IMG/VR virus record: IMGVR_UViG_3300037466_003757
Location: 118,680 to 172,958 of that record
Length of the DNA stretch: 54,279 nucleotides
Direction: 5' to 3' (one strand)
Source: a virus
Taxonomy: Duplodnaviria; Heunggongvirae; Uroviricota; Caudoviricetes
In this document: positions 6,859 through 28,333 of the stretch, piece after piece
Layout of the letters: each line of letters opens with the position of its first letter
Position numbering within the stretch: the stretch's first letter is position 1
Made by a program: the position numbers and the translations under genes
The notes under the pieces: generated by a model
Seen by the model: the letters and a program-made list of their open reading frames with translations, nothing else
Told to the model about the DNA's origin: nothing
Databases searched by the model: none

Positions 6859-7659
6859 GTGCCGATCGTAATTCTCGAGGGTTGTGACGGGGCCGGCAAA
6901 ACAACTCTTGCCGAAGAGATTCAAGATGTCTGGTTTCGGATCAAGCAACCGGAAGACAATCGAATCCCGCAAGTGACGACAATTCATTTCGGACCGCCCG
7001 ATCCGATAACGTCCGACGAAACTCTCGAAATGTACGGAGCACGACTTCGAAAACGACTTCTTCGTGATATCGAGGCATTCGATCACACCGATTCGACCAA
7101 ATTACTTATTGTCGATCGGCTTCACATCGGATCGTACGTGTACGGTAATCTGTTCCGACCCGAGACATCGGTCGGCGGATGGGGCGAACTCGGACGTGAC
7201 GGTCTGTCGTACGTTGACGACGCATACGCTGCCAAAGGCGCTGTCATGGCAATTCTTCTTCCCGACGCCGGTACACTCGTTCGTCGCTCAGCATCGCGTG
7301 TGGACGAGTTCCTCGATTCCGTTTCTTTGTCCGTCCCCGGCGACAGTAACGCTGCATCGGAACGTGCACGGCAATTGGTCGAGATTGCGACTGCATACGA
7401 GGTGTTCGTTCGGATGTACGGCAGCGATTACGCCACGTACCGTCGAATCGGACATCCGTATTACACGGATCCGGAACGTAATCCCGGATATCCCGACATC
7501 GCTTACGAAACGGACGTCAAACTGGTCGCTGCTGACATTGTTGGACGTGCAATCGATGCAAGTCTCGATGTCGCGCGAAACGAGGCAGACATTCTGGATC
7601 CCGACGGATCGATCAGACGAGCAATCGCCGAAGACCGATTGAAGATGGAGAAGGAATGA
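6859..7659 (+). CDS. Thymidylate-kinase-like dNMP kinase
   Basis: IVILEGCDGAGKTT Walker A; IVDRLHIGSYVYG (DR motif); overlaps the TS-like gene. Confidence 0.8.
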   Translation: MPIVILEGCDGAGKTTLAEEIQDVWFRIKQPEDNRIPQVTTIHFGPPDPITSDETLEMYGARLRKRLLRDIEAFDHTDSTKLLIVDRLHIGSYVYGNLFRPETSVGGWGELGRDGLSYVDDAYAAKGAVMAILLPDAGTLVRRSASRVDEFLDSVSLSVPGDSNAASERARQLVEIATAYEVFVRMYGSDYATYRRIGHPYYTDPERNPGYPDIAYETDVKLVAADIVGRAIDASLDVARNEADILDPDGSIRRAIAEDRLKMEKE

Positions 7660-8546
7660 AGGCTTTCGAATTCGACAACGCCCACCAGGGATTTCCGAAG
7701 CTTCTCGATTATGTCCGTCTGAACGGCGTCGAGCGTCCGAGTCGTGGTGGATCCATGTACGAAGTCGAGGACGTCACCGTTTCGTTTCCTGCGGGACCGC
7801 GGTACGAAGTACCGGTACGTAAGGGCAGCGCACCGTTGATCGGATATATGGAGGGCGCACAACTCGTCGGAGCATTCGAAGCGAACGACGTCATGAAAAA
7901 GTTGTGGCCGAAATACTTCGATTTCTCCGACGGATACGGAAACTACGGCGCCCGTATGTCGAATTCGGATCAGCTTGCATGGGTTTTCTCGGAACTCAAG
8001 GACAATCCGGACACTCGTCGCGCTGTTGTCACGATGTGGGATCCGTCGATGGACGTTCCGCCGTCGCACATGGATCACCCATGCACGATCGGCATCATTT
8101 TTCGCGTTCGTGACGGATATTTGAACATGACGGTCACGATGCGTTCGCAGGATCTGATTCTCGGTCACGGACCAGATATCATTCAGTTCGGAATGCTGCA
8201 GCAGACATTCGCGACGGCGTTGGAACTCGAATGCGGTACGTATACGCATCACATGATCTCGTGTCATATCTATGAACGTGATATTCCGCAAGCGTGTCGA
8301 TTCCTGAACGAGTTGGATGTTACGCAAATTCGGGCGAAATACCACGACGAACCACAGACCATCGCACCGTTGAGTTGTCCCGGATGGACATTCGAGCAAA
8401 TTCAAAACGAAGCGAAGAAGTCGCTGACACTAAGCGAGAACGGCGACAAACTCGATCTCGAGTTCGGGACTCCGCTCGGTTTCTCGATTCATTCGAAAGC
8501 GCATCTGCGTCTGCTCAATATCGCGTTGAAGGACATTCGGAAATGA
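7656..8546 (+). CDS. Thymidylate synthase homologue, dCMP-modifying type (probable dCMP hydroxymethylase-like)
   Basis: DTRRAV, catalytic HPC, MRSQD...G...D and HIYE motifs; Asp (codon 8175-8177) at the position of E. coli TS Asn177. Confidence 0.8.
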   Translation: MKAFEFDNAHQGFPKLLDYVRLNGVERPSRGGSMYEVEDVTVSFPAGPRYEVPVRKGSAPLIGYMEGAQLVGAFEANDVMKKLWPKYFDFSDGYGNYGARMSNSDQLAWVFSELKDNPDTRRAVVTMWDPSMDVPPSHMDHPCTIGIIFRVRDGYLNMTVTMRSQDLILGHGPDIIQFGMLQQTFATALELECGTYTHHMISCHIYERDIPQACRFLNELDVTQIRAKYHDEPQTIAPLSCPGWTFEQIQNEAKKSLTLSENGDKLDLEFGTPLGFSIHSKAHLRLLNIALKDIRK

Positions 8547-9322
8547 CTCGATTGATCAACGTCATCTGCGTACCTGGTACGTTCGAGCGTACCGGTGGAT
8601 CCGTTGTCACGGGAATGCTCGCAAACGTCGTACCGCATCTCGACGAGCGATTTCTTCCGATGCAGGCCGATTATCCGGCAGCGTACGGAATTCCGATGGG
8701 CGAAGCAGCGAGTATTCAGACCGGCGTGACGAACGTGCTTACCATGATCAGAAATGCACCGAATCCAGTCGTTCTCATCGGATACTCACAAGGCGCGCAA
8801 GTCGTTCGTATGATTCTCTCCGAACTGGCAGCCGGACTGCATCCCGACCTCCAAGTCATCGGCGCCGCATTGATAGCAGATCCATGGCGAGAACCCGGAG
8901 TTGCGAACGGAACACCAGATTTACGGACCAGATTGAACGGTTGGGGAATTGCTGGATCGGGTGGTGACGTTCCAGAAAATATCTGGTTCTGCGAGATTGC
9001 GTATCCGGGAGATATGATTCCGAACGCGGACGGCGATAATCTCGTCCGTATTTTCGCAGACTGGACCGCGTGGATGTCAGTCAGTGACATGATCGGATGG
9101 GGCAACGACATCCTGAACAAGATCCGTTCGAATCGGTTCCAACGGGTAGTAGTCAACTGGCGGAATCCGTTCTCCGCGATTCAGCAAATTCGTCGCTCCG
9201 AGGAAACCGTCAGAGGATACCTGACCGGTACGCACACATGTTACGGTGTGGCACTCGTACCGGGTACGAACATCACATACTGCCAGTATCTGGCCGAACA
9301 AATGAACGCAAACGTGTTCTAA
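8543..9322 (+). CDS. lysB: Lysin B-like cutinase-family serine esterase
   Basis: VICVPGT, YPA, VVLIGYSQGA nucleophile elbow, ALIADPWR, GWGIAG, PGDMI. Confidence 0.8.
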   Translation: MTRLINVICVPGTFERTGGSVVTGMLANVVPHLDERFLPMQADYPAAYGIPMGEAASIQTGVTNVLTMIRNAPNPVVLIGYSQGAQVVRMILSELAAGLHPDLQVIGAALIADPWREPGVANGTPDLRTRLNGWGIAGSGGDVPENIWFCEIAYPGDMIPNADGDNLVRIFADWTAWMSVSDMIGWGNDILNKIRSNRFQRVVVNWRNPFSAIQQIRRSEETVRGYLTGTHTCYGVALVPGTNITYCQYLAEQMNANVF

Positions 9323-9351
9323 CTATCTCTCCCAGCGAGAGTGAGAAAAGA

Positions 9352-9960
9352 ATGACAGAGACAAAGACAAAGACAACCGTACACGTGACAAACAAACGCC
9401 GCGATCGCAAAAAGGTCGAACGCTGCAGTTGGACGAAGACCAGCGTGCTGGCAGAATACACGGCAAATCCGACATCGGTCTATGCTGCACGATTCAACGG
9501 AACCGACGAACAGCTCAACGCACTCGACAAGGTTGGCGTCCCGTTCGATGCCAGATGGTTCGTCTGGTGCGCCGTATTGAACCGTCACGTTCCTCTTCGT
9601 AAAGGCGCGTGGGTCGTCAAGGACGTCGAAGGATGGCAGGTGATGAGCGATGCGAAGTTCACCACACTGTACTCTAGAACCGTTGTCGACGGACCGCAGA
9701 CCGATATCGCGGTCAAGCTTCCGCGGCCCAATACGAACGCCGGTGCGGTGCCGAACGAAGTTCGATTCACGAGCAACGACTTCGAGATCGCCGTTGTAAA
9801 CGGTCGTGTCTATGCCGGATCACTCGATTCGAAAGACTGGGAAACGCAATTCGACGGCAAGACGATGGAAGACTACGCGCTCGCATTGCTTGCCGCGAGT
9901 CACTACGCCCAGGGCAAACTCGCGTACAAGGCTGACATGACGGACGGGAGCAATAAGTGA
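9352..9960 (+). CDS. Hypothetical protein
   Basis: ATG at 9352 after GTGAGAAAAG; coupled to the next gene by overlap. Confidence 0.65.
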   Translation: MTETKTKTTVHVTNKRRDRKKVERCSWTKTSVLAEYTANPTSVYAARFNGTDEQLNALDKVGVPFDARWFVWCAVLNRHVPLRKGAWVVKDVEGWQVMSDAKFTTLYSRTVVDGPQTDIAVKLPRPNTNAGAVPNEVRFTSNDFEIAVVNGRVYAGSLDSKDWETQFDGKTMEDYALALLAASHYAQGKLAYKADMTDGSNK

Positions 9961-10547
9961 CGGACGATCGCCCATCATGGGACGAAGTCTGGTTGACAAC
10001 TGCATCGACGGTCGGTCGTCGGTCACGTTGTGTGCGCGGTAACGTCGGATGCGTTCTCGTATCACCCGACAATCGCGCACTCAGCGTTACGTACGTCGGT
10101 CCTCCAAAAAATTACGAGCCGTCAGACAACGACAACGCGTGCGACAAATGGTGTCCACGTGGAGCTGGTAAGAGCGCTCCCGGCGCTGCTTACGACGAAT
10201 GCAATAGCATTCACGCCGAGGCTAACGGAATTGCGCGAGTCAACAGTAGCGAACTCATCGGTGGAACGGCGTATGTGAGCAGTGTCTGTTGTTTCAATTG
10301 CGCCAAACTTCTCGCAGCGGGTCAAGTGAAACGTGTTGTGACATTTTTACGTGAAAATGAAATACACCGTAAGCCGTCGAACGCAGTTGCGTATTTACTC
10401 GACTCGGGAATTGAAGTCGAATTATGGTTCGATGACGGAATAAATCAGTCTTCATACGATATCTATCGCAACGAAGATGCGCTTCACGCGTGCGTTGATC
10501 TCGAACATTACGCAAAATACGGAGCTGGAGTTACACGTCGTCCCTAG
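9957..10547 (+). CDS. dCMP deaminase family protein
   Basis: RPSWDE, SRCVRGNVGCVLV, HAEAN and CCFNCAK zinc ligands. Confidence 0.85.
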   Translation: MTDDRPSWDEVWLTTASTVGRRSRCVRGNVGCVLVSPDNRALSVTYVGPPKNYEPSDNDNACDKWCPRGAGKSAPGAAYDECNSIHAEANGIARVNSSELIGGTAYVSSVCCFNCAKLLAAGQVKRVVTFLRENEIHRKPSNAVAYLLDSGIEVELWFDDGINQSSYDIYRNEDALHACVDLEHYAKYGAGVTRRP

Positions 10548-10576
10548 TTTATTCAGTTGCCAACTCGTGGTAAAAT
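10548..10576 (+). promoter_or_regulatory. Promoter TTTATT-17-TAAAAT with TG extension
   Basis: -35 at 10548-10553, TG-G-TAAAAT ending at 10576. Confidence 0.5.
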
Positions 10577-10611
10577 AGGTTTTAGCAAGCACCACGTCCG
10601 GGGAGAAGCAG

Positions 10612-11244
10612 ATGATCTGCGCAGATACCGTCGGACAAATTGTAGGGGCGGTGAACGTTATTCTTTTTGCACTTTCGCTTGGTTTTGGACGCTTTCGACT
10701 GGCCGTGGACGCACGCACGACGCCGGAAACAGAATATGTCGAAGAATCAAACGAAGACGATGAGCTCATTGTCGAAGAAGACGATGTCGAAGAAAATGAT
10801 GAATCCGCCCCTTCAATTCGACGTCATGATGTTGTCGAATTCGAAGGCGAACAACTCGATATTGTCGTCGCACCGTTGATCGCTGATATTGTTCGAGCAA
10901 CGAGTTTCGAAATATCGGATATTTTTACGAAAATTCCCGAAGATGACCCGAACTCGATCTTATTTCATGTTCCAGACTCGTCTTCTGGCAGTTCTTTACT
11001 TGAGCTCTTTACACGTGCCATGCCGTATGTCGGCGAATGTCTGATCGACGGTGAAGTTGAATGTCCATCTGAGAACTGGAATATTGAAACGTACACGATT
11101 CAAGAACCGTGCGATACATGTAGCGAAAATCACGTTATGATCACGATCGCGCTTCGCGTTCCGTTGAAAGTTCTTCCAGAACTGACGAGACGTGTACACA
11201 CGTTCCTGTATCCGCACGGACGAAGCGATGTTGTAGACGTATAA
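10612..11244 (+). CDS. Hypothetical acidic protein with hydrophobic N-terminus
   Basis: 210-aa ORF with an E/D-rich segment and a CxxC. Confidence 0.6.
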   Translation: MICADTVGQIVGAVNVILFALSLGFGRFRLAVDARTTPETEYVEESNEDDELIVEEDDVEENDESAPSIRRHDVVEFEGEQLDIVVAPLIADIVRATSFEISDIFTKIPEDDPNSILFHVPDSSSGSSLLELFTRAMPYVGECLIDGEVECPSENWNIETYTIQEPCDTCSENHVMITIALRVPLKVLPELTRRVHTFLYPHGRSDVVDV

Positions 11245-11303
11245 AGCTCGCGAAAGCTTTAATTTCGCACGACGACTTGACGAGATACCGAAAGTGAGCT
11301 CAC

Positions 11304-12000
11304 GTGGTCGACCGCTTCGATGATGAAGTTCCGCTTCAAAGAACTTTGAGCATATACGCTTTACATATCGGAGATTATCGATATCGCTACGTGGGCTTAA
11401 CGAGTATAGACGTTCAAGTTCGGCTAAGACAACACGTCCGTAACGCAGACGTCGGAGTTCGGACGCCAATTTATGACTGGATGCGTCATCATGGTGCGTG
11501 GAAAGTACGTGTTGAAACGCTTGAAGTTTGCGATTCGCTTGATGATCTCGATTTGGCAGAGAAAAAGTGGATTGCGATTATCAGAAACCGTGATAATAGT
11601 CTGCTAAACGTTCTTGATGGTGGATATGGCAATTTCGGCTATCGATTCACTCAAGAGCAACGTATGGCGTTGAGCGTAACGATGAAAACGGTCAATGAGA
11701 CGTTGATCAGAAAGCCGTTATCAACGGAATCACGTCGTAAAATGAGCGAATCTGCCAAAAATCGCGAACAAAACGCGTATAGCTCTGAAGCCAAGCAGAA
11801 CATGGCGATTGCGCAACGTAAGCGGTATCAATCAAAACCGATGTCTGACGAGACCAAAGAAAAAATTCGTCAAGCCAATCTCGGTAAGAAAATGGACGAA
11901 GCGACGAAAAATAAAATTCGGATCGCGAATAAGGGGCAGAAGCGAACTGAAGCGCAACGTGAAACTATGAAACGTGCGCAAGCGGCGCGAAAGGCCGTCA

Positions 12001-12008
<8 letters not shown>
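11304..12008 (+). CDS. GIY-YIG homing endonuclease with NUMOD3-like repeats
   Basis: IYAL...YVGLT, RLRQH, AEKKWI, LLNV..GG; C-terminal S.ETK.KI repeats; AT-rich; overlaps the DNA polymerase start. Confidence 0.85.
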
Positions 12009-14806
<2,798 letters not shown>

Positions 14807-14807
14807 A

Positions 14808-15443
14808 ATGAAAACTTATGCTAATGCCGCCACTGTGTATGGATTGTATAGTCACGATGAACTTCGATACGTCGGTGCGACAACGATGTCGTTAAATCAA
14901 CGATTACGTCATCATTGGAATCGTTCAAAACTTAAAAACACGCCACTATATACGTGGTTGAAAACAGAAAAACGTAACGATATTGAAATTCGACCATTGG
15001 TCATTGTCGAATATTCGCAACGTTACGAATACGAACGAAACGTCATATCTGCGATGTTTGCTGCGGGTCATCCACTCGTTAATATATGGCATACACCACG
15101 CGATGCCGACATTCGCGAACGACTTGGTGGAGTAATGCGCGGAAAAAAAATGCCTGAACAAACGCGTCAAGCGATTATTAAGCATAATAGAGGACGTCAG
15201 AAGTCCCCAGAACATGCAGCAAAAATATCAGCAGCTCGACGAACTCCGAAATTACGAGCATTATCATCGTCACAAGCACGACGAATGAGTCACACTAGAT
15301 ATCATTCTGATCGATTCGTAAATCACGCATGTGAATGGTGCGCGTACGAACGCACGACTCTTGAGATGAGTTATGCATTATGGAATCGTGTATGGCTCGA
15401 TGCTGAAAAGCTTTGGAAGACAGCAAATCGAAAGTGTAAATAA
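14808..15443 (+). CDS. GIY-YIG homing endonuclease
   Basis: VYGLY...YVGAT, RLRHH, YERNVI, LVN; NUMOD3-like KSPEHAAKIS; AT-rich. Confidence 0.85.
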   Translation: MKTYANAATVYGLYSHDELRYVGATTMSLNQRLRHHWNRSKLKNTPLYTWLKTEKRNDIEIRPLVIVEYSQRYEYERNVISAMFAAGHPLVNIWHTPRDADIRERLGGVMRGKKMPEQTRQAIIKHNRGRQKSPEHAAKISAARRTPKLRALSSSQARRMSHTRYHSDRFVNHACEWCAYERTTLEMSYALWNRVWLDAEKLWKTANRKCK

Positions 15444-15874
15444 TGCAAGACGAGTGCTTTTGCGGCGAATGTGGACCGTGCCGTCGAGCATTGAGAGCTA
15501 TCGATCGTGAATTGATCGGCTGGAAACCGATCCTCGAGTTGCCCGTCGAGAAACGAAAAGTAGCGCAGAAACAAACGACTGAACGCAATACGAAGCGTGA
15601 CGCGAAAGCTACTGCGCCGGTTACGCCGAAGAAAGAATCACGTCCGAAACTGACGCCAGTCGAATCGAATCGTCAACGACGGCAGATTCTTCGCGAACAA
15701 CGCATTATGATCGACGGTTATTGGTTCCATCCGAAACCAGATCTCATTCACGGTACGAGTAATGCACGAAAAAGATACGGTTGCGCGTGTCCTGAGTGCC
15801 GTGCTTTCGGTCGAGAGAATTACCATAAATATGGACCGAAGTCACGAAAGCAGAATGCAGTGGCTGATCAGTAG
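15443..15874 (+). CDS. Hypothetical zinc-binding protein
   Basis: CFCGECGPC and HGT...YGCACPEC motifs. Confidence 0.65.
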   Translation: MQDECFCGECGPCRRALRAIDRELIGWKPILELPVEKRKVAQKQTTERNTKRDAKATAPVTPKKESRPKLTPVESNRQRRQILREQRIMIDGYWFHPKPDLIHGTSNARKRYGCACPECRAFGRENYHKYGPKSRKQNAVADQ

Positions 15875-15881
15875 GAGTTAA

Positions 15882-16484: not shown

Positions 16485-16519
16485 CCAATAGGGCTTGCGA
16501 ATGACAAAGGAGTTCACGG

Positions 16520-16852: not shown

Positions 16853-16954
16853 AATGCATTTACGATATTACGAAATGCAATAACGACTTAATTAAAGACG
16901 ATATTGGAAGCGTTTTCGATGCGCGAGTTTCCGTGTTTTCAAACGTATTATTGC

Positions 16955-16986
16955 GTATACGCGGGAAGTCATGATCGTGATAATAT
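16955..16986 (+). promoter_or_regulatory. GTATACGC box plus extended -10 (GTGATAATAT)
   Basis: Same box and spacing as at 20691-20722. Confidence 0.55.
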
Positions 16987-17016
16987 AGCTTCTAACGCCG
17001 TCGCATTCTGTCACGA

Positions 17017-19062: not shown

Positions 19063-19117
19063 CATCGACACGATATCCGTTCATATTCCCGCGTCGCTGG
19101 GACGCTGACATCGAGAG

Positions 19118-19597
19118 ATGCAAATGACATCGGAAAAGAAACGCACACCGCAGCGAGGCGAGTCGGTTGCAATCGGTTTTCGCGACGGTCCGATTCTGAA
19201 ACAAACAGAGGTCGACTTCGAAGAGATGTTCTGCAGGGACGACGGTGAACCGACCGCAGTTCTTGTCAGTTACGTCACGACGGACGAAAAACTTCACGAT
19301 AAACGAGTCAACGTTTTGTTCAACTGGAGAGATATCGTCTCGATCACGTGGGACGCTGAGTCGAATAAATCGGCGGATTCCAAATCCCATCGTGTTGGTA
19401 TGGCCAGCGAAAGTGATGCCGCGACGGGTACAGTGAAAGACGAGGACAAAGCTTCGACTATCGCGCGTCGTTTCATGGATGGCTTCATGACAGGCGTCGC
19501 GAAAGAATTATCGACTGAGGAGGGCGCTGAAGCTCTCAACAAACTTCGTGAATACGCTAAGCGTGTTGGTCAAGTCGGAAAAGGTGACGGCGAGTGA
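19118..19597 (+). CDS. Hypothetical protein
   Basis: 159-aa ORF coupled to the next gene by GTGA overlap. Confidence 0.65.
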   Translation: MQMTSEKKRTPQRGESVAIGFRDGPILKQTEVDFEEMFCRDDGEPTAVLVSYVTTDEKLHDKRVNVLFNWRDIVSITWDAESNKSADSKSHRVGMASESDAATGTVKDEDKASTIARRFMDGFMTGVAKELSTEEGAEALNKLREYAKRVGQVGKGDGE

Positions 19598-20589
19598 CTA
19601 TTCTCGGACTCGAGTCCATGCATCCGCGGACCGAAGACGGTGCGATCATTGTGTCGCAGAGCGATCTCGGTGCCTTCAAGACTGATCGGCGAACGTGGTT
19701 ACTCGGTACGTATCTCGGTCTCAAGTCACGCGAACCGCTGATTCTTGGACCTTTGCGTCTCGGAACACGCGTACATCACGCTCTCGAATATTACTACGGT
19801 TACAGTGAAGATCTTCTCGAAGCCTACAAAAAATTGGTAGACAGCGAGTATCAGGATCTGATCGAGTCACGTGTCGTGTTCGATGAACGCGCGTGGCAGA
19901 AAGAAATCGAACTCGGTCGTGTCATGCTCGAGGGATACAGCGAATATCTCGAAGAAACCGGCGCGGACGAGTATCTCGAGATTCTCGGCGCTGAGAAGGT
20001 ACTGTCTCACACGTTCGATATCGAGGGAACACCAGTCGTTCTGCGCGGTAAGGTCGACTGTCGAGCTCGCAACACGTTCACGAACATGAACTTGGTGATC
20101 GACTTCAAGACCACCGCATCGTTCGAACGTCTGATTCCGCTGGCGCCGCACAGCGAGCAGCTGTTGACGTACTGCGTACTCGAAAAGCTTCACGCCAAAG
20201 AGACCGGCGACACCGAGCACATGCTGCAAGGTGCGATGTTCATCATGTTGCGAAAGGTCTTGCGCGGCACGAACTCTCGCCCACCGTACTATCAGCGGAT
20301 CGAAGTTCATCATTCGGAGAAACGGCTGCGATCGTTCTATACGCAGCTGTACGGAACGCTTCGTGATTATCTCGCTGTCGTGAAAGCGCTGGATGCGGGA
20401 GTCGATCACCGAATCGTCGCGTATCCGAATCCAGGATGGCATACCAGATGGTCGCCGTTCAAGCACGTCATGGAAATGATGGATGATGGTTCGCGTGTCG
20501 AAGACATGATCGCCGATTTGTATGTGCAATCGGATCCTCACGAACGATACCGGCAAGAAAAAACGGATCTTCTGTCGCAGTTCGAGTAA
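19594..20589 (+). CDS. Cas4/RecB-like PD-(D/E)XK exonuclease
   Basis: SQSDLGAFK, GTRVHHALE, GAEK, LRGKVD, VIDFKT, QLLTY. Confidence 0.8.
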   Translation: MTILGLESMHPRTEDGAIIVSQSDLGAFKTDRRTWLLGTYLGLKSREPLILGPLRLGTRVHHALEYYYGYSEDLLEAYKKLVDSEYQDLIESRVVFDERAWQKEIELGRVMLEGYSEYLEETGADEYLEILGAEKVLSHTFDIEGTPVVLRGKVDCRARNTFTNMNLVIDFKTTASFERLIPLAPHSEQLLTYCVLEKLHAKETGDTEHMLQGAMFIMLRKVLRGTNSRPPYYQRIEVHHSEKRLRSFYTQLYGTLRDYLAVVKALDAGVDHRIVAYPNPGWHTRWSPFKHVMEMMDDGSRVEDMIADLYVQSDPHERYRQEKTDLLSQFE

Positions 20590-20690
20590 TTAAAAAATGA
20601 CATTCGAATATTACGTAAGCCATTCTTGACTTTCGTATGTCGCGTTTAAAGAATGCGAACTACAAAACGTTGAAAAACATCATGCATTCG

Positions 20691-20722
20691 GTATACGCTT
20701 AACGAAAGAAACGTGATACGAT
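20691..20722 (+). promoter_or_regulatory. GTATACGC box plus extended -10 (GTGATACGAT)
   Basis: Upstream of the Sak4-like/SSB genes. Confidence 0.6.
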
Positions 20723-20805
20723 AAATCTCGCCGCGGAATTATGGTGGCGAATTCCCGAATTGTTGCTGCGGCAACACGATGAGTAAAGTGGGGTGATGCC
20801 AAATC

Positions 20806-21546
20806 ATGAACCGTGCAATTTCTATCCTCGTCCACGGTCATGCTTGAACGGCTAAAACCGGGAAAAGCACATTCGCTGCAACGTCACCAGGACCTCGACT
20901 TCTTCTCGACGTAGAAGCAGGTTCGCGATTCTTGAACGTCACTTCGACACCTTGGGATCCGAATACTCAAGCGCCACCGGCAGACGACGGTTCATGGGAC
21001 ACATGTATTGTTACGGTACGTCATTACGATGACGTTATTCGCGCTTATGAATGGCTGCGTTCGGGTAAGCATCCGTTCAATAGCGTAATTGTCGACTCCG
21101 TCTCGGAATTGCAGCAACGACTCGTCGAAAAAGTCACGAATCGTATGGCTGCACAACAGCAGGACTGGGGTGAAATTCTCCGGCAGTTCATGGGAATTAT
21201 GCGCGATTTTCGTGACCTGACAGAGAATCCGGTCAAACCGCTCACCGCAGTCGTTCTCGTTGCGATGTCGGTACCGGGACAGGACGGAAAATATCGTCCG
21301 TTCGCGCAGGGACAGTCGCGGATCATGCTTCCGTATCTGTTCGATATTCTCGCCGCGTCGAATGTATTGACGTGGGTGGACGACGCGGGAAATCAGCAGA
21401 CGCTGTATCGTTTGCTGTTCCAGAGTCCCCAGTATGAAACCGGCGAACGTGTTGGTGGACGTGTAGGTCAATTCATGGACAACGCCACCGTTCCAATGAT
21501 TCTGGATGCTGTATTCGGACCGCTTCCAGACGAAGTTACCGCGTAA
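20806..21546 (+). CDS. Sak4/AAA_24-like recombination ATPase with an in-frame TGA and 9-nt insert in Walker A (recoded gene or pseudogene)
   Basis: SD GGGGTGAT; ATG 20806 gives MNRAISILVHGHA*TAKTGKSTFAATSPGPRLLLDVEAG, in frame with ORF 20932-21546 (VIVDSVSELQ, MLPYLFDI). Confidence 0.8.
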
Positions 21547-21574
21547 CTGTTCAACAAGAAAGAGGATGTGACTA

Positions 21575-22261
21575 ATGCCACTGCAGAGTTGGAATCAGCT
21601 GGTTCAAGAAGCTGGCGATATCAGCGGTGATTTCGAGGTTCTGCCTGCGGCAGATTACGATCTCGAAGTCGTCAAGGCCGAGCCAAAGCAAGCCCGTTCC
21701 GGCAAGCTGATGTACTCGTGCATGTACAAGGTCATCTCGGGTCCGTCCAAGGGACGGACGTTGTTCGATCAGCTTGTTCTGACGACTGACAACCCGAACG
21801 CGTTGCGTATGTTCTTCGTCAAGATGGCGGCAATCGGTATCGACAAAGGTTTCTTCGCTCAGAATCCGAGCGATCAGCAGGTCGCCGAGCAGCTCGTCGG
21901 CAAGCAGTTCCGCGCACAGGTCGGTATTCGTAAGTACAACGGCGAGGACAAGAACGAGGTCAAATCCTACTCTCGTCTGAACCGGACGCCCACAAGCGGA
22001 CCGCAGGGCATGCCCGCGCCGATCGTTGCGTCACCGTCGCCGCTGTCTTCGCCGCCCGTCAAGTCGTCGCCGGCTCCGTCGCCCGCTCCGGTGAGCGCAC
22101 CTCCCGCCGCTGCTGCGACTCCGGCACAGACTGCAGCTCCCGCTGCGCCCGCTGCAGAGCCGATCAAACAGGCGGACGTTCCGCCGATCAACGAGCCGGT
22201 CAAGACGCCCGACGCCCAGCCGGTATCTGTCGCTCCGGCTGCTCCGGACGATCCGTTCTGA
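21575..22261 (+). CDS. DUF669-like ssDNA-binding protein
   Basis: FEVLPAADY, KAEPK..SGK.M, GRTLFDQL, QLVGK, NEVK; Pro/Ala-rich tail ending DDPF. Confidence 0.75.
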   Translation: MPLQSWNQLVQEAGDISGDFEVLPAADYDLEVVKAEPKQARSGKLMYSCMYKVISGPSKGRTLFDQLVLTTDNPNALRMFFVKMAAIGIDKGFFAQNPSDQQVAEQLVGKQFRAQVGIRKYNGEDKNEVKSYSRLNRTPTSGPQGMPAPIVASPSPLSSPPVKSSPAPSPAPVSAPPAAAATPAQTAAPAAPAAEPIKQADVPPINEPVKTPDAQPVSVAPAAPDDPF

Positions 22262-22284
22262 TTTAGCGACTGGGAGCGAAGTTC

Positions 22285-22294
22285 CTGATATGAT
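22285..22294 (+). promoter_or_regulatory. Extended -10 promoter (CTGATATGAT)
   Basis: TG-A-TATGAT; predicted start near 22301, the first base of the tRNA-like stem. Confidence 0.55.
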
Positions 22295-22300
22295 CTTGGT

Positions 22301-22354
22301 GGCCTCCGCAGAACACGGGGACTCAGCCCGTTCGAGCCGGGCCGGAGGCCACCT
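22301..22354 (+). ncRNA. tRNA-like RNA (acceptor stem plus T-arm, no anticodon arm), candidate sRNA or leader
   Basis: GGCCTCCG/CGGAGGCC stem, T-arm GCCCG-TTCGAGC-CGGGC, 3' ACC. Confidence 0.45.
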
Positions 22355-22413
22355 TTCGCTGGGACTTCTATCGTTATTGGCGTGCACGCGCTATTCGACT
22401 GAGATACGACAGG

Positions 22414-23493
22414 ATGAATCACACAGTGGCCCCACGAGCGATCGTGTCCGGATTCACTGCCGAACAGACAAACGGCAGTCCTAGAACCGGATATCCCGCA
22501 TTGTCGCCAGGTATCAAACTGGCGTTGGAAACAATGGGATACGAAACACGAATGGCACCGATGCGCGTCGATACGGTAGACGAATGGCTATCGGAATCAG
22601 ACGTTCTCGTCATGGGAATTTCTCCGATTATCGCCGTCGGGTCACGATATTTATATGGAGCCCTCGAAGCTATCCGGAAAGCGCGCCGTCACAACTGCGC
22701 GCTTGTGTTTTATATTTCGGATTGGCAGGTACCGCTTCTCACGTCGTCTGTCACGACAATTCTCAATGGACCGCACCGTCTGACTAAATATTTCATGCGT
22801 CATCGGACAGACTTCTTCTGGGCGAATCATCACGTTGATGAACTTCTCACCGTCGTACAGGCGTTGAAGGATCGTCCGTGGCCCGGTACGCTCATTCCGT
22901 CGCATCCGTGGCGTAACGATATGCCGAAAATCAGCAGATACGTTCCGGCGCGGCGACTGTATTTCTTCGATCCGACAATCGTAACGTCCGGTCAATGGGC
23001 GCCGCATTCTGTGCAGGCGACTCCGGACGAACGCAAGCGTGAATGGGTCATGGCAGCTCTCGGCGACTACGACGCATGGTTGCAGCAACAATGCGTGACA
23101 TGGCCTGTTCGGTCGTTCGGCGGTAAAACGAACTTGATCGATGAGAACGGCAACAAAATCGTCAATCCACGCGTTCAAGAACCTGTCATTCACGAGAACT
23201 ACGCGCAAGTGTGGGGTGGTCTCGGTCCGAAACACGGCGCGGACGGTATGGGATGGTGGCGCAGTCGCTGGGACTTCATCCTGAAGAACGGCGGAATTAT
23301 CTTCGGCAGCAACGAAGAGATGTCGCTGATGGGTGGTCCGTTCGTCAATCGGTTATCCGATATCGAATCGATGACGACACCGCAATTGGTCGAACTGCAG
23401 AACGCTCAGCGTGCGGCCCATCGCGTCGAAACGATGGAACAAGTCACCGAAACGTTCCGGCAAGCCATCGCGGACGCGAGGGCAGAACTGTGA
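22414..23493 (+). CDS. DNA beta-glucosyltransferase-like (GT-B) glycosyltransferase 1
   Basis: N-terminal strand-helix (AIVSG...LALETMGYE), DVLVMG, LVFYISD resembling the T4 BGT YLFTD strand; paralogous to 23684. Confidence 0.6.
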   Translation: MNHTVAPRAIVSGFTAEQTNGSPRTGYPALSPGIKLALETMGYETRMAPMRVDTVDEWLSESDVLVMGISPIIAVGSRYLYGALEAIRKARRHNCALVFYISDWQVPLLTSSVTTILNGPHRLTKYFMRHRTDFFWANHHVDELLTVVQALKDRPWPGTLIPSHPWRNDMPKISRYVPARRLYFFDPTIVTSGQWAPHSVQATPDERKREWVMAALGDYDAWLQQQCVTWPVRSFGGKTNLIDENGNKIVNPRVQEPVIHENYAQVWGGLGPKHGADGMGWWRSRWDFILKNGGIIFGSNEEMSLMGGPFVNRLSDIESMTTPQLVELQNAQRAAHRVETMEQVTETFRQAIADARAEL

Positions 23494-23687
23494 AGAACGC
23501 TATCGGGTTATGGATTTGTGCGCTTGGATTTCACAAAAAGTCTGAATGGTCCGACTTCGGAGAATTGACGACGACAAAATCAGAAGACTGCGATGACGAT
23601 ATCTTTCACGAATTCTCCGTAATACAGAAACAATGCCCGCGCTGCGGAATGGAGAAGACTCGTTTGGAATGGAGGCGAGTATATTGA
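23490..23687 (+). CDS. Small Cys/His protein (DUF1660-like)
   Basis: LWICALGFHK...CPRCG; 4-bp overlaps at both ends. Confidence 0.6.
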   Translation: MKNAIGLWICALGFHKKSEWSDFGELTTTKSEDCDDDIFHEFSVIQKQCPRCGMEKTRLEWRRVY

Positions 23688-24688
23688 AAATATTGCTCAC
23701 CGGTGGCACATCGTCGCAGACTCACGAAACGACCAAACGTCAACCAGAGACGCTGGTTGGTCTCATGGCACGCGCACTACGCGATCGTGGACACGAGGTT
23801 TACACTCGTGCATTCTCAGTTCGTGATATCGAAACTGACGACACGGGATGGGATAACGCATTCGATTTCGCGTTCGTCGGACAATCGCCATTACGAGGAC
23901 TCGGATCATCGTACTGCTACGGCGCTCTCGCCGCGCAGCATCGTTTCCGCGGTAAATGTGCGATTTTCACAGACGACACGGACACGAAGAAAATGCGCGC
24001 CGAATGGTTGATGGCGCTCAAGAAACCCGCTGATTTCGTCAAACCGTTCTGGCATTACAAGCGTGACTGGGAAACTGCACGATCGCGCGCCGTGCTTCCG
24101 CGACTTCTCGAGCAGATCGAGTGGTTGATCGGCGACGATGCATCCACATACCCGCAGACATTCGTACCGGGTTGGACGTATAACTTGGCGTTTCGTTCGG
24201 GCGTCCAGTTATCGCCACACGCGCGTTTGAGCGTTCGCGCGGCCGATCCATCGAAATGGACGCAGGCGACCGTGACACGTACAATCCCAGACGAGAACGA
24301 ACGTTATTGGGCGTCGTGTTGGCGCGCGAACGCGCGTGAAGTACAAAAAATGGGAATGCAAAGCTGGGCGTTCCAGGAGATCAATCGTCTCACCTGGAAA
24401 GAACTGGGATCCGCTTCCGGACTTCTCGCTCCGTCTGCTGCATGGTCACCAGAAGTTCGTCTCGCCGTCGAATCAGGAGTTCCCGTCGCGACCGAATGGC
24501 GCGTGATGGGCCCTCAATTCGGTGAGCCGTTCGAGTCACTGGCCGCCAATATGGAAGAAATGAAACAGAATGAGCTTGACGATCTCGCCGCGCAACAAAA
24601 AGCGGCGTTGACCGATAAGGGATTCGAGAAAGACGAATTCCCGAACGTACTCGAAGACATGATCAACAAGACTCTGGAGGCGCAGTGA
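23684..24688 (+). CDS. DNA beta-glucosyltransferase-like glycosyltransferase 2
   Basis: TTG start after GGAGG; KILLTG...ALRDRGHEV, FDFAFVG, CAIFTDD; shares SxYxYGAL with 22414. Confidence 0.6.
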   Translation: MKILLTGGTSSQTHETTKRQPETLVGLMARALRDRGHEVYTRAFSVRDIETDDTGWDNAFDFAFVGQSPLRGLGSSYCYGALAAQHRFRGKCAIFTDDTDTKKMRAEWLMALKKPADFVKPFWHYKRDWETARSRAVLPRLLEQIEWLIGDDASTYPQTFVPGWTYNLAFRSGVQLSPHARLSVRAADPSKWTQATVTRTIPDENERYWASCWRANAREVQKMGMQSWAFQEINRLTWKELGSASGLLAPSAAWSPEVRLAVESGVPVATEWRVMGPQFGEPFESLAANMEEMKQNELDDLAAQQKAALTDKGFEKDEFPNVLEDMINKTLEAQ

Positions 24689-25236
24689 CCGACGATTGGA
24701 AGTGGCTGGAATCCACCCGTCAGCTTCAGATCGAAGCTTACGGTAAGGATCCAGGCGAACTTGTCGGGGACGAGCGCGGTAATTACTGGACAACCATGAT
24801 GTTCGCGGCTAGTGATGAGATCTCCGAATTCGGTAATGAGATCCACTGGAAGCCGTGGGGGAAAAACCGCGGAGAAATTATCAATAAATCTGCGGCACTT
24901 GGTGAACTTGTCGATGTCCAACATTTTGTTGCAAATTTACTGCTCTCGATTGGCGTCACCGAAGACGAATTCTGGGCTGCGTATCGTGAAAAGCAAGAAC
25001 GTAACAAAGCTCGTCAACAAACCGGCGGTGGCTACGACAGCAAGAAAACGAAATGTCCGAATTGTAAGCGTGAACTCGACAAGCCCGGTTCGTACCGTTC
25101 GCTCAGGGTGAGAGTCGGTACCGGTGCGGGTACTCAGGAAGACGTGGAAAGCGGTATTCTGACGCATTCGTTACAGTGCGTCTCATGTTTCCATCAGTTC
25201 GATTACGAGCTCAAGACGGGAGAAAAACTTCCATGA
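24685..25236 (+). CDS. All-alpha dimeric dCTPase/dUTPase (T4 gp56-like) with C-terminal Zn ribbon
   Basis: DEISEF...WKPW...GELVDVQHF...N.ARQ...GY; CPNC...CVSC. Confidence 0.8.
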   Translation: MTDDWKWLESTRQLQIEAYGKDPGELVGDERGNYWTTMMFAASDEISEFGNEIHWKPWGKNRGEIINKSAALGELVDVQHFVANLLLSIGVTEDEFWAAYREKQERNKARQQTGGGYDSKKTKCPNCKRELDKPGSYRSLRVRVGTGAGTQEDVESGILTHSLQCVSCFHQFDYELKTGEKLP

Positions 25237-26483
25237 GCCCCAAGATCGCGTGTCTTTTGACGTCGCCCAAGTATTTCGGTGGTGCTGAGACAGCACTCAT
25301 GTTTACTGTCGACGGTCTTCGCGAAATCGGATGCGACGTCACGGTTATCGCGTCGTCGGCGACCAATGGTAAGGGCTGGACGCAACAGTCGCTCGACGTC
25401 GTAGATCGGATCACCAGTCCACGGAAAGAATCGCTGGAAGACGTTCTGTCCGCAGAAAACTTTGACGGAATCGTTCTCAGCAACGTATTTTTTCCGGACG
25501 AGTCGATGGCACAAGTCTTCTACGAATCCGACACGATCGCCCCGTGGACGTCGGGATGGCACAACAACATCGTTCTGAACAACATCTCAGTCGACAAGAT
25601 CAAATCGGCGCCGAAGTGGTGCGGTTCGTTCCTGGCGTTCTGGCCGACCGTCAAGGACGCCATCGATATCGATTCGTGGGTCGAGTCCATCTTGCCGTAC
25701 CGGTCAAATCCGGCGTTGACATCGATCAATCGTGACAAACTGTCGCCCGAATACGACTTCGGATTTATCGGGCGCGCCGACCCGAAGAAGGGTGTACTGA
25801 CGTTCGTCGCCGCGATGGAATGGGCATCACGTCATGCGGATGATCAATCGTTCACAGCGTTGATCGCCGGTGCGCCGAGCGACGTTGCGGGTGGTCCTCA
25901 CATTTGGCACATCTCGCGCTTTATGGAGAATCTCGATTGGGAGATCACGCGTCACGGTCCGAAAATGAAAAGCAACTGGACGGCCGTACATCCGAAGACC
26001 GGAAGTCGCGTCGACTACACCGGACCGTACAACTACAGTGACCTTCCGCGACTGTTCTCGAATATCAAATGCGTCGTCAACTTCACGTCCGATCGTTGCG
26101 CGAACTCACATCTCGAATACTCCGCGCTCGAGGCATTGGAAGCCGGATGCGTTTTGTCCGCGCGAGCTGACTGGCCCGATTATCATTATCCGACTGCTCC
26201 CGCTATTTTTGGTACGCCTATAGCCGCGCATCGCGTCATGAGCAAAAATCGAATCATTTACAATTCGTTCAAGCCGGAAAATATCGATACCGTTTACGCA
26301 GAGGCGGGCGCGCATTTTGCCGGACTGGTTCCGAAGATTCGCGCAATTGACGTTCAGGGTTCGTCACGGGACAAGTATCTGCTAAGCGTTGCAAGAAATC
26401 GTCAGGTCGTCGCCGACGCGCACGATCCGAAAATCGCGGCGAAAGCATATTTGACATCGCTCGGTCTTGAATTGAATCAGTAA
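25233..26483 (+). CDS. GT-B glycosyltransferase, T4 alpha-glucosyltransferase-like
   Basis: FGGAET...GLREIGCDV, FGFIGRADPKKG, HLEYSALEALEAGC (EX7E-type). Confidence 0.75.
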   Translation: MSPKIACLLTSPKYFGGAETALMFTVDGLREIGCDVTVIASSATNGKGWTQQSLDVVDRITSPRKESLEDVLSAENFDGIVLSNVFFPDESMAQVFYESDTIAPWTSGWHNNIVLNNISVDKIKSAPKWCGSFLAFWPTVKDAIDIDSWVESILPYRSNPALTSINRDKLSPEYDFGFIGRADPKKGVLTFVAAMEWASRHADDQSFTALIAGAPSDVAGGPHIWHISRFMENLDWEITRHGPKMKSNWTAVHPKTGSRVDYTGPYNYSDLPRLFSNIKCVVNFTSDRCANSHLEYSALEALEAGCVLSARADWPDYHYPTAPAIFGTPIAAHRVMSKNRIIYNSFKPENIDTVYAEAGAHFAGLVPKIRAIDVQGSSRDKYLLSVARNRQVVADAHDPKIAAKAYLTSLGLELNQ

Positions 26484-26484
26484 G

Positions 26485-27051
26485 ATGACCGGATACTGGA
26501 TTTGGGATGAGTCTAAAGAGATTACCGCATACGCTCGTATGAGATTGAATATTGCGTATATCGGTGTCACTTCTAATCCGAATAAACGTTTCCGCGATCA
26601 TCTACGAGATTTTCCGGATAGCGTCATTATTGTTCTCGAAACCGGTATTAAACCAATCAATGCGTGGGATAAAGAACGATATTGGCATACTTTTTTCGAA
26701 GATCTTGATATGATTATTGAGTCACATACTCAATACGATGTATCAGATATAGGCCATAAAGCTCGAAATTACGGTCCGCTTTCTGATGAACAGAAACAGC
26801 AAATTTCTTTGACTCTTAAAGGACGTTCATCGATTTTTAAGGACGTTCCAAAAACCGAAGAGCACAAGAAAAAGCTTTCTGACACCAGTAAACGAAACGA
26901 TTCGGGCAAACGATTTGGCGAGCATAGCAAACGATCGCGGGCTATGTGCATCGAATGCAACTTTGAATCCAATCCAGCAGGAATCGTCAAGCACCAGAAG
27001 AACTCTGGACATAGCGGAATTAGGAAGTGGTTAAATGATCCCGTTTGCTAG
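26485..27051 (+). CDS. GIY-YIG-like homing endonuclease
   Basis: AYIGVTSNPNKRFRDH, KERYW, NUMOD3-like KTEEHKKKLS, C-terminal CxxC...H...H; AT-rich. Confidence 0.75.
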   Translation: MTGYWIWDESKEITAYARMRLNIAYIGVTSNPNKRFRDHLRDFPDSVIIVLETGIKPINAWDKERYWHTFFEDLDMIIESHTQYDVSDIGHKARNYGPLSDEQKQQISLTLKGRSSIFKDVPKTEEHKKKLSDTSKRNDSGKRFGEHSKRSRAMCIECNFESNPAGIVKHQKNSGHSGIRKWLNDPVC

Positions 27052-28333
27052 CGTTCAGGGTTTGGGGGGCGGGATGGAGCTTGGAATCATCCAATCGGGT
27101 AGTTTTGAGCTTGTACATCGTACTGGTGGATTGGATCTCGGCGCGCCACTCGTAGAGCAAAATCGTAAATTATACGGTTGGAATTGGACGTCCAATTTTA
27201 CGAGTAATCAACGAAAATGGCAACAAGTAGACGTTGCGTTTGTATCTAGTAACGCTCCTTGTTCAGCTTTTTCTACATTGACGTCGAAAACTCTTCGCGG
27301 AACATCGGCGAAAGTGTTGCAGTATACAGACGAGGTATTCGACTTCGTCGCGATGCAGAAGAAAACACCGCTGCTCGTCTCGATCGAGTCCGTTCAGCAG
27401 GCGTTCTCGCTCGGTCGTCCATATTTCCAGCAGAAACGTCTCGAGCTCGAAGAGAAGACCGGCAAACAGTGGGATCTCATTTGGGTATTCCAGTCGAATC
27501 AGTCGCTCGGTGGCGCGTCCGTTCGTCGTCGCGTATTCATCACGCTCTCACAGATTCCATTCGGTGTCGAGTACGCGCAGCCCGCTCGTATCGCACGATT
27601 CGGTGACGCGGTTCGCGATCTGCAAGGTCTCGAATTAACCACAACGTTGCAGCCGTACCGTCGCCCGTCAACGTGGTGGTCGACATCTAGACGCGCTGCT
27701 GACGGCGTGGACGGTCATTTCAACGATCCGCGATGGAATAACGAGTTCGCCGAATTAATCGCCATGTCGGACGCTATGGGGCAACGATGGGCCGCTGGGG
27801 AGTCGTTAGAAACAGTGCTTCGGCGAGTGTGGGCGCACTATCAGCGTTTACCGCACGAATGGCAGCGAAACGTTCACAAGCACGAACCGCGCAATTTCGG
27901 TATGGGAATCAATCAGACGTCGTGCTGGGATCCGGACGCTCTTGGACGTGTCGTTACGGGCGCGGGTCCTATGATGTCCGTGCATTGGGCCGAACCACGA
28001 TTGCTGACATATCGTGAAGTCTTTCGTTTGCAGGGATTCCCGGACACGTATCGGCTTTACGGTTCACGTGACTATAAAAAAGCATCAACAGTGGCTGGAA
28101 AGGGAGTTCCAGTCGATGCGGGACGCTGGCTCGGCGAATGGGTGGGCAAAGCGTTCAACGGTGAGCCGGGTACGATTCTCGGTGAGAAAATCGGCGATCG
28201 TGAACGCAAGATCGATCTTACGCACGCGTGGAAGAACACGTACGAGTTCGAAGCACCATGGCGGTACGCGAAACACAGTCTGCACGAACAAATCGGTAAT
28301 CCGGATTGGGATCACATGCAGCATACGGCATAG
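27035..28333 (+). CDS. Divergent C5-cytosine DNA methyltransferase-fold enzyme
   Basis: Motif I QGLGGG, IV NAPC, VI IESV, VIII RRRVFI, IX LTYREVFRLQGFPD, X AGKGVPV. Confidence 0.85.
   Translation: MIPFASVQGLGGGMELGIIQSGSFELVHRTGGLDLGAPLVEQNRKLYGWNWTSNFTSNQRKWQQVDVAFVSSNAPCSAFSTLTSKTLRGTSAKVLQYTDEVFDFVAMQKKTPLLVSIESVQQAFSLGRPYFQQKRLELEEKTGKQWDLIWVFQSNQSLGGASVRRRVFITLSQIPFGVEYAQPARIARFGDAVRDLQGLELTTTLQPYRRPSTWWSTSRRAADGVDGHFNDPRWNNEFAELIAMSDAMGQRWAAGESLETVLRRVWAHYQRLPHEWQRNVHKHEPRNFGMGINQTSCWDPDALGRVVTGAGPMMSVHWAEPRLLTYREVFRLQGFPDTYRLYGSRDYKKASTVAGKGVPVDAGRWLGEWVGKAFNGEPGTILGEKIGDRERKIDLTHAWKNTYEFEAPWRYAKHSLHEQIGNPDWDHMQHTA

Follow-up and report, generated by a model that had tools for sequence, protein, structure and literature searches.

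The final 54 kb (54,279 nucleotides; the whole stretch analysed here, referred to as the window) of the 172,958-bp IMG/VR phage record IMGVR_UViG_3300037466_003757 carries eight genes that, in our view, probably encode a T4-type pathway for DNA containing sugar-decorated 5-hydroxymethylcytosine (hmC), in a form used by a broad set of actinophages. This reading draws on gene identities, diagnostic residues, homologies, the fold of one glycosyltransferase, and synteny and gene co-occurrence among related phages. An original prediction, made from the DNA of the window, had proposed that this phage builds a modified deoxycytidine and adds one or more sugars to it, possibly as di- or trisaccharides. 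Modified cytosine bearing sugar is still the best reading, as judged by the residue signature of the thymidylate synthase (TS) homologue, the homology to T4 gp56, the AGT-like fold of one glycosyltransferase and the conservation of the module, but the di- or trisaccharide of the proposal is only one possibility: three glycosyltransferases might build a chain or might attach single sugars in different linkages or contexts, and the two glycosyltransferases of T4 each add one glucose. All eight genes named in the prediction are open reading frames (ORFs) on the plus strand where it had placed them:

6859..7659, +: thymidylate-kinase-like P-loop deoxynucleoside monophosphate (dNMP) kinase, 266 aa (Pfam thymidylate-kinase E 0.0014; PHROG 'thymidylate kinase' 6.8e-10)
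7656..8546, +: TS homologue with a dCMP hydroxymethylase signature (Pfam Thymidylat_synt 1.8e-23)
9957..10547, +: dCMP deaminase, 196 aa (Pfam dCMP_cyt_deam_1 7.2e-13)
22414..23493, +: probable GT-B glycosyltransferase, paralogue 1, 359 aa (from paralogy, ESM Atlas neighbours and context)
23669..24688, +: probable GT-B glycosyltransferase, paralogue 2, 339 aa (probable start 23669; a longer ORF runs from 23633)
24685..25236, +: gp56-like all-alpha nucleoside triphosphate (NTP) pyrophosphatase of the dUTPase_2/MazG type (Pfam dUTPase_2 5.1e-8)
25233..26483, +: GT-B / GT4-like (retaining-type) glycosyltransferase with a predicted AGT-like fold, 416 aa (AlphaFold predicted local distance difference test score, pLDDT, 74)
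27035..28333, +: C5-cytosine DNA methyltransferase (MTase)-like enzyme, 432 aa (Pfam DNA_methylase, PF00145, 5e-11)

All eight lie inside one long co-directional (+) block of replication genes, which also holds DNA polymerase I, the ribonucleotide reductase small subunit, an SNF2 helicase, a PD-(D/E)XK nuclease, an AAA_24 recombinase-like protein and DUF669.

Nucleotide-level genes and the hydroxymethylase signature

The TS homologue was aligned with E. coli ThyA, T4 gp42 and RB69 gp48, and its residues are numbered here as in E. coli ThyA. The window protein has Asp at position 143 (L143D), Cys146, D169 and Asp at position 177 (N177D), which is the pattern of T4 gp42, whereas E. coli ThyA has L143 and N177 and RB69 gp48 has D169N at the same positions. 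Asp at position 177 is common to the window protein, T4 gp42 and MilA, and MilA, a CMP hydroxymethylase, is also the top PDB sequence match of the window protein. N177D is reported to confer dCMP specificity, an acidic residue at position 143 to accompany a non-methyl product, in connection with water access, and D169N to be a mark of flavin-dependent 5-hydroxy-dCMP synthases (PMC13326640). Judged by its sequence, the TS homologue matches the T4 dCMP hydroxymethylase type, and this signature agrees with the place in a modified-deoxycytidine pathway that had been predicted for it. Two other assignments were considered and rejected, namely a 5-hydroxy-dCMP synthase of the RB69 gp48 type, since D169 is kept and not replaced by Asn, and a true thymidylate synthase, since the protein carries L143D together with N177D. 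The complete genome contains neither a second ThyA-family gene nor ThyX, which makes the TS homologue its sole TS; because this only TS is of the hmC type and ThyX is absent, dTMP would have to come from a host enzyme that is fed by the phage dCMP deaminase.

A second link to the T4 scheme is provided by the pyrophosphatase gene. When a profile of its 26-sequence family was aligned with T4 gp56, hhalign returned a probability of 98.4% and an E-value of 6.9e-15 over gp56 residues 36-170, so that the homology implied by the earlier label 'gp56-like dCTPase/dUTPase' is borne out. By this comparison the dUTPase_2 protein at 24685 is a T4 gp56 homologue, and from its genomic context we propose that it acts as a dCTPase. 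In 53 of 60 related loci its gene precedes the MTase-like gene by no more than ~1.5 kb. The protein also has a C-terminal Cys4 zinc-ribbon-like tail (residues ~120-170) that T4 gp56 lacks, and Cys124, Cys127 and Cys168 of this tail are invariant in the 26 family members.

The kinase and the deaminase flank the TS homologue in a conserved manner. A kinase homologue adjoins the TS homologue in the Gordonia phage Forza, in the lake metagenome phage DSL-LC01 and in 13/18 related TS loci, a dCMP deaminase is found downstream of the TS homologue in 16/18 of these loci, and the order kinase, TS, deaminase is kept in Forza, DSL-LC01 and most related metagenomic contigs. The Pfam thymidylate-kinase match of the 6859 gene spans the P-loop only. 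We propose that this kinase turns 5-hydroxymethyl-dCMP (hm-dCMP) into hm-dCDP.

Glycosyltransferases and the sugar slot

Among the three candidate glycosyltransferases, the 25233 protein is the one whose fold could be assigned from a structural model. Foldseek searches with this model returned the GT-B/GT4 enzymes HepE, GlgM and BshA together with T4 AGT, with GT4 enzymes and AGT ranked together at E-values of 1e-9 to 1e-8; the T4 AGT chains matched at E 4e-9 to 2e-7 with template modelling (TM) scores of 0.53-0.54, tied with HepE and GlgM. The protein contains an E-x7-E-like motif (HLEYSALEALE), and its Forza homologue is annotated as a glycosyltransferase. At the sequence level, hhalign of the 25233 family against T4 AGT aligned only a 19-residue LEY..LE motif (E 0.089), and Pfam gave only weak Glyco_trans_1_2 and Glycos_transf_1 matches. 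According to its model, the 25233 protein is a GT-B / GT4-like glycosyltransferase that is AGT-like in fold. The 'AGT-like' label of the original prediction therefore holds for the GT-B fold, T4 AGT being among the top Foldseek matches.

The 22414 and 23669 proteins are paralogous (BLASTP 2e-9). A 60-sequence profile of their family aligned with T4 BGT at an hhalign E-value of 0.0014 and a probability of 17%, with only the N-domain in register. Their named ESM Atlas neighbours are all glycosyltransferases, including PF09198 and PF13524; in feature space the PF09198 clusters of the Atlas score 0.93-0.94. The model of the 22414 protein provided by the Atlas matched GT4/GT1 (GT-B) enzymes at TM scores of 0.57-0.66. 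Foldseek and VIA-align searches with the AlphaFold model of the 22414 protein, in which the C-domain is poor, were uninformative, finding only flavodoxin-like, TIR and CheY-type N-domain matches to many unrelated folds (Z ~7-8.5). Because of the Atlas neighbours and model, the weak in-register hhalign match to T4 BGT and the genomic context, we regard both proteins as probable GT-B enzymes. The main reason for viewing them as DNA glycosyltransferases is that they occupy a conserved sugar slot inside a DNA-metabolism operon. A 158-aa ORF (23211-23687) that overlaps both paralogue genes and has no family match was treated as spurious.

This slot became apparent when the MTase-like family was used as query against IMG/VR, which gave 61 loci; in 56 of these the homologue is full-length, with an identity of 29-37%. 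Neighbourhoods were defined as clustered ORFs within 10 kb, and counts are over 60 loci. The upstream part keeps the order polymerase I, RuvC, helicase, PD-(D/E)XK, RecA-like, DUF669 and is followed by a variable slot, after which come the gp56-like gene, small ORFs including DUF6378, the MTase-like gene, often a DenV-like glycosylase, and WhiB. The variable slot typically contains two paralogues of the 22414/23669 family (46/60 loci). Elsewhere it is filled by a Glyco_trans_1_2 glycosyltransferase with a sugar nucleotidyltransferase (NTP_transferase), by a glycosyltransferase with an RGP-type mutase, or by NTP_transferase with SIS; in DSL-LC01 it holds a glycosyltransferase and a UDP-galactopyranose mutase, and in the Micrococcus phage Kurnik two small glycosyltransferases. 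Because relatives carry such varied sets of glycosyltransferase and sugar-nucleotide genes at this place, the region between DUF669 and the MTase-like gene is, as read from these gene families, a sugar-decoration slot inside a DNA-metabolism operon. Many actinophages keep the whole module, and in them recognisable sugar genes occupy this place. In most lake-type relatives DUF6378 lies directly upstream and a DenV-like pyrimidine-dimer glycosylase (Pyr_excise) directly downstream of the MTase-like gene (for example L057:9612-9914 and L057:11534-12061); neither gene is found at those positions in the window.

The MTase-like gene is closely associated with the hmC-type TS. All 15 phage-database records with the MTase-like gene (15/15) are actinophages that also bear the TS homologue. 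In IMG/VR the TS homologue was present on 17/35 contigs tested, on 14/15 contigs of at least 35 kb and in 2/2 complete genomes. In the one long exception, ~11 kb of sequence separates the MTase-like gene from the contig end that faces the expected position of the TS gene, and the closeness of this end may explain why the TS gene is missing. Each of the 17 TS homologues encoded on contigs with the MTase-like gene carries the gp42-type signature, as do those of Forza, DSL-LC01 and Kurnik. Two actinophages without the MTase-like gene served as controls: LuckyBarnes has a uracil-type hydroxymethylase (N177 kept) and glycosyltransferases, and KeaneyLin has a plain ThyA. Since the MTase-like gene co-occurs with the hmC-type TS and is absent from both controls, the MTase-like enzyme and the gp56 homologue are the conserved core of the cytosine pathway, and the sugar genes are its variable part.

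The C5-methylase-like enzyme and the reading of the module

The protein encoded at 27035 has the C5-MTase fold over its full length, with Atlas structure matches at TM scores of 0.60-0.76 over residues 1-410, and all 56 members of its clade keep the Pro-Cys of motif IV, the Glu of motif VI, the Arg-x-Arg of motif VIII and motif IX without change. The catalytic-Cys motif reads NAPC in the window protein and CPPC in the clade, and an hhalign comparison of the family with E. coli Dcm covered motifs IV-VI only. The fold and catalytic motifs of the predicted 'C5-MTase-like' gene are confirmed in this way, and the second cytosine chemistry that had been suggested for it would be one possible reading. 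When the clade was compared with M.HaeIII by hidden Markov model alignment and sequence logo, we found that the motif I Phe is replaced by Cys/Val, the motif II Glu by Gly, the motif III Asp by Trp and the motif X Asn by Lys, so that the residues by which canonical C5-MTases contact S-adenosylmethionine (SAM), namely Phe, Glu, Asp and Asn, are not those of the window clade. The motif X Lys is present in 56/56 clade members and 141/147 members of the wider family. We also considered that the whole family might have lost its SAM contacts and rejected this, as the wider-family alignment keeps the motif II Glu and a Phe in motif I in most members, both of which are lost in the window's clade.

The wider family is large: a profile search of 1.84 billion representatives yielded 205 clusters (50% identity) at E <= 1e-30. 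In its neighbourhoods the gene directly upstream is gp56-like or of the PRA-PH type and WhiB lies downstream, with sugar genes present or not. Some members carry a fused domain with a class I methyltransferase fold (Methyltransf_23, Methyltransf_21, FtsJ), and one is fused to the helical domain of a 5-hydroxymethyldeoxyuridine (5-hmdU) DNA kinase (PF18723, 5e-40); the latter is a single case on a 5.6-kb contig. The fused proteins are metagenomic (P0162, P0078, P0095, P0111, P0155, P0058, P0067). In DSL-LC01, a separate class I methyltransferase-fold gene lies directly upstream of the MTase-like gene.

In the pathway that we propose, whose substrates, products and order of steps we infer from the genes described above, the gp56-like pyrophosphatase would clear dCTP to dCMP and the TS homologue would hydroxymethylate dCMP before replication. 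The thymidylate-kinase-like enzyme would then form the diphosphate and a host kinase the triphosphate, and the phage family A polymerase would incorporate hm-dC, while the dCMP deaminase may divert some dCMP to dUMP for the host thymidylate synthase. After replication, up to three GT-B glycosyltransferases would move sugars from host nucleoside diphosphate (NDP)-sugars onto the hydroxymethyl groups. Searches of the whole genome gave no match to NTP_transferase, NAD-epimerase or CmoA; with no gene of either of the first two kinds, the sugar donors would be NDP-sugars of the host. Tet_JBP likewise had no match in the whole genome, and in 21 related records nothing exceeded its Pfam threshold, so that the original statement that the window has no TET or sugar-nucleotide gene is true for all 172,958 bp. 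The MTase-like enzyme most likely would flip DNA cytosines out of the helix, attack C6 via its conserved Cys and use something other than plain SAM, and it may either cap cytosines that escaped replacement or work on hmC itself. Three roles are candidates: the capping of escaped cytosines (maybe with a non-methyl group), action on hmC, and that of an ordinary methylase with unusual motifs. We hold it possible, though somewhat unlikely, that the Lys-type enzyme represents a new transferase or exchanger that acts on cytosine C5 in DNA, beside pre-replicative hmC formation, and that the virion DNA of many actinophages carries an undescribed cytosine derivative; candidates would be a non-methyl group on residual cytosine or a substituted 5-methylene derived from hmC.

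Several points weigh against a sugar-decorated hmC pathway of the T4 type. The hydroxymethylase product is predicted by analogy from the residue signature, and the kinase at 6859 resembles thymidylate kinases and not T4 gp1. For the 22414 and 23669 proteins, Pfam, PF09198 included, gave no hit at E-values up to 10, and searches of PDB chain sequences with the single proteins and with the 60-sequence family profile gave no match. The AlphaFold model of the 22414 protein is poor (pLDDT 59.5) and confident only in the N-terminal Rossmann/flavodoxin-like half. Together with the weak hhalign result these findings leave the earlier 'BGT-like' label of the pair not established, even though a GT-B fold is probable. 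In some relatives the gp56-like and MTase-like pair occurs without any glycosyltransferase (L054; P0044), and glycosylation is therefore not obligatory for the module. The literature that we searched (actinophage hmC, Gordonia phage DNA modification, DSL-LC01) contained no chemical data on the DNA of this phage or its relatives. Finally, if every cytosine is substituted at C5, a C5-acting DNA enzyme is left with no obvious substrate, and in this respect the simple T4 scheme is incomplete here.

We consider unlikely on balance an alternative in which the DNA carries two C5 modifications on cytosine. Replacement by hmC would be incomplete or context-dependent, and the MTase-like enzyme would add a non-methyl group to the leftover cytosine, for example carboxymethyl from a carboxy-SAM-like donor, so that the gp56-like enzyme before replication and the MTase-like enzyme after it would jointly leave no bare cytosine. 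The invariant motif X Lys is in keeping with this, as its position corresponds to Arg350 of the natural carboxymethyltransferase CmoX, which binds the carboxylate of carboxy-SAM (Cx-SAM), and as engineered M.MpeI N374K is cited as accepting Cx-SAM (PMC12783734). The catalytic Cys, Glu and Arg-x-Arg are kept, the MTase-like gene comes immediately after the gp56-like gene, and the class I methyltransferase-fold fusions and the upstream gene of DSL-LC01 recall the CmoA-CmoX pairing. On the other hand, CmoA (TIGR00740) is absent from this genome and from 21 related records, the Phe, Glu and Asp by which M.HaeIII and CmoX hold the SAM or Cx-SAM adenosine are missing from the window clade, and the motif X residue is Lys and not the Arg by which the authors of the CmoX study define their family.

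We rate as quite improbable a scheme, built on analogy, in which the MTase-like enzyme acts on 5hmC or activated 5hmC and its Cys attack on C6 leads to exchange or removal of the 5-CH2-OR group, giving an undescribed hypermodification. The kinase-activated substitution of 5-hydroxymethyluracil (5hmU) offers a parallel, and 5hmC can be a substrate of C5-methyltransferases in vitro when SAM is absent. The strict association with a dCMP hydroxymethylase-type TS, the fact that the window's clade has lost the canonical SAM contacts and the PF18723 fusion would also fit, but that fusion stands alone, no kinase of the 5-hmdU type was seen in the window, and we know of no natural precedent for such an exchange on cytosine.

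It is very improbable, to our mind, that thymine and not cytosine is replaced, with hm-dCMP being deaminated to hm-dUMP, phosphorylated by the Tmk-like kinase, incorporated as 5hmU and glycosylated, which would leave cytosine free for the C5 enzyme. Such a route would explain the constant company of a C5-cytosine DNA enzyme and would suit both the Tmk-like character of the kinase and the deaminase that directly follows the TS homologue in most related loci. It is roundabout, however: 5hmU-making phages hydroxymethylate dUMP directly, and LuckyBarnes combines a uracil-type enzyme with glycosyltransferases. T4 also has a dCMP deaminase alongside hmC, and gp56 homologues are dCTPase/dUTPase enzymes.

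Least probable of all is a reading in which the glycosyltransferases modify the host envelope or proteins of the virion, so that bare hmC and at most ordinary site-specific 5-methylcytosine (5mC) would be found in the DNA. The acceptor cannot be read from a GT-B fold alone, enzymes of polysaccharide, glycolipid and thiol biosynthesis are among the top Foldseek matches, and glycosyltransferases are missing from this slot in some relatives. Against this reading, the sugar genes always stay within the replication/nucleotide module between DUF669 and the MTase-like gene, by the gp56-like gene and on the same strand, T4 AGT is among the best structural matches, and the T4 BGT family is one of the named Atlas neighbours.

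Genome setting and comparison with known systems

The record has a GC content of 54%, its ends share 127 identical bases, and it is classed as having direct terminal repeats by IMG/VR and as complete by CheckV. The identical ends fit a genome that is complete and terminally redundant or assembled as a circle. With its 173 kb the record far exceeds the 103-131 kb of its relatives. The closest cultured relatives are distant, namely Gordonia phages of the Forza, Phendrix and GMA2 groups and the Micrococcus phage Kurnik, with the metagenome phage DSL-LC01 counted among them; megablast of the region against phage records gave a sole match, a ribonucleotide-reductase segment with 74% identity to Gordonia phages. 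Host markers and mobile elements of the window are:

8543-9322, +: cutinase / PE-PPE-type alpha/beta hydrolase, a LysB-like mycolylarabinogalactan esterase, between the TS homologue and the dCMP deaminase
28706: WhiB gene, a host/actinophage marker
11304-12008, 14763-15443 and 26485-27051, all +: GIY-YIG homing-endonuclease-like ORFs (one with NUMOD3), among polymerase, ribonucleotide reductase and modification genes

WhiB, the LysB-like cutinase, a Sipho_Gp37 tail protein and an SLT-bearing tape-measure-like gene are present, and no tail sheath gene was matched in the whole 172,958-bp genome. Because of these features, which accord with the 'actinophage siphovirus' of the original prediction, the data point to a siphovirus of a mycolic-acid-containing actinobacterium. 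The LysB-like gene, itself suggestive of a mycolic-acid host, is distant from the lysis and tail genes, and in Forza lysin B is likewise near the kinase-TS pair. Among the tail genes there are a PAF-acetylhydrolase-like / PETase-like alpha/beta hydrolase (34500-35600, -) and an M23 peptidase (42969-44132, -), which are possibly cell-envelope-degrading virion or lysis enzymes.

The GIY-YIG ORF at 26485..27051 (+), a weak Pfam match, separates the 25233 glycosyltransferase gene from the MTase-like gene. It has no counterpart at that place in relatives and is probably a mobile passenger outside the pathway. A Macro-domain protein (6004-6747, +; Pfam 2.4e-30) is encoded just upstream of the kinase-TS pair, and three plus-strand ORFs without family match lie inside or beside the modification genes (9352-9960, 28361-28693 and 31897-33963); those of 110 and 688 aa among them have counterparts at the same positions in Forza.

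Whether a phage escapes a given restriction, CRISPR or type IV defence is decided by its modified bases, and such bases are also a source of enzymes for DNA labelling and epigenome sequencing. To our knowledge, nearly all that is understood about hmC pathways comes from T4-like phages of Gram-negative hosts. If our reading is true, the module, which is carried by cultured Gordonia and Micrococcus phages, extends sugar-hmC DNA to siphoviruses of actinobacteria. It also includes a large uncharacterised family with C5-MTase catalytic residues, a motif X Lys and fixed partners, a gp56-like putative dCTPase and a predicted dCMP hydroxymethylase, and the product of this family could be a new DNA base or the enzyme a new tool.

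Among known systems, the thymidine hypermodification that depends on a 5-hmdU DNA kinase, attributed to Lee et al., reportedly uses a hydroxymethyl handle that is made at the nucleotide level and further processed on DNA. The window would share this handle logic, and one wider-family MTase-like protein is fused to the helical domain of the 5-hmdU DNA kinase (5-HMUDK); unlike in that pathway, the base here would be cytosine and not uracil, and no 5-HMUDK, aGPT-Pplase or PLP enzymes were seen in the window.

Phage clusters of MTase, 5mYOX (TET) and glycosyltransferase genes (PMC8256090; bioRxiv 10.1101/2023.12.21.572611) likewise combine a C5-methylase-family enzyme with glycosyltransferases and have cytosine C5 as their target. 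They differ from the window in that no TET/JBP gene is present here, nor above the Pfam threshold in 21 relatives, in that hmC is predicted to arise from a nucleotide-level TS homologue, and in that the cofactor motifs of the methylase-like enzyme are non-canonical.

The arabinosylation of 5-hydroxycytosine in RB69 and DLP3 (PMC13326640) resembles the window pathway in having a dCMP-acting TS homologue (N177D, L143D/E), a kinase and DNA glycosyltransferases, whereas the window TS homologue keeps D169 (no D169N) and arabinose-nucleotide genes are lacking. With the CmoA / CmoX / CmoY system for 5-carboxymethylcytosine (PMC12783734) the window enzyme has in common the C5-MTase fold, a basic residue in place of the motif X Asn and a PPC motif, which is SPPC in CmoX as against NAPC in the window and CPPC in the clade. 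In contrast to CmoX, the basic residue is Lys and not Arg, neither CmoA nor an amide ligase is present, the window clade does not conserve the Phe, Glu and Asp that bind adenosine, and the enzyme accompanies a predicted dCMP hydroxymethylase and a gp56-like enzyme.

The greatest likeness is to the glucosyl-hmC pathway of the T-even phages, with which the window shares the gp42-type signature, a gp56 homologue, a dCMP deaminase, a dNMP kinase, GT-B transferases of which one is AGT-like in fold, and the lack of phage sugar-nucleotide genes. Unlike T4, the phage is an actinobacterial siphovirus whose replication genes include a family A polymerase, its kinase is thymidylate-kinase-like and not gp1-like, its glycosyltransferases could not be placed by sequence in the AGT or the BGT family, and a C5-methylase-like gene lies beside the gp56 homologue, where T4 has the adenine methylase Dam beside gene 56. 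The view best supported by these comparisons is that a known T4-type scheme of pre-replicative hmC formation and post-replicative glycosylation has been joined by a DNA-level C5-methylase-type enzyme with a different cofactor pocket.

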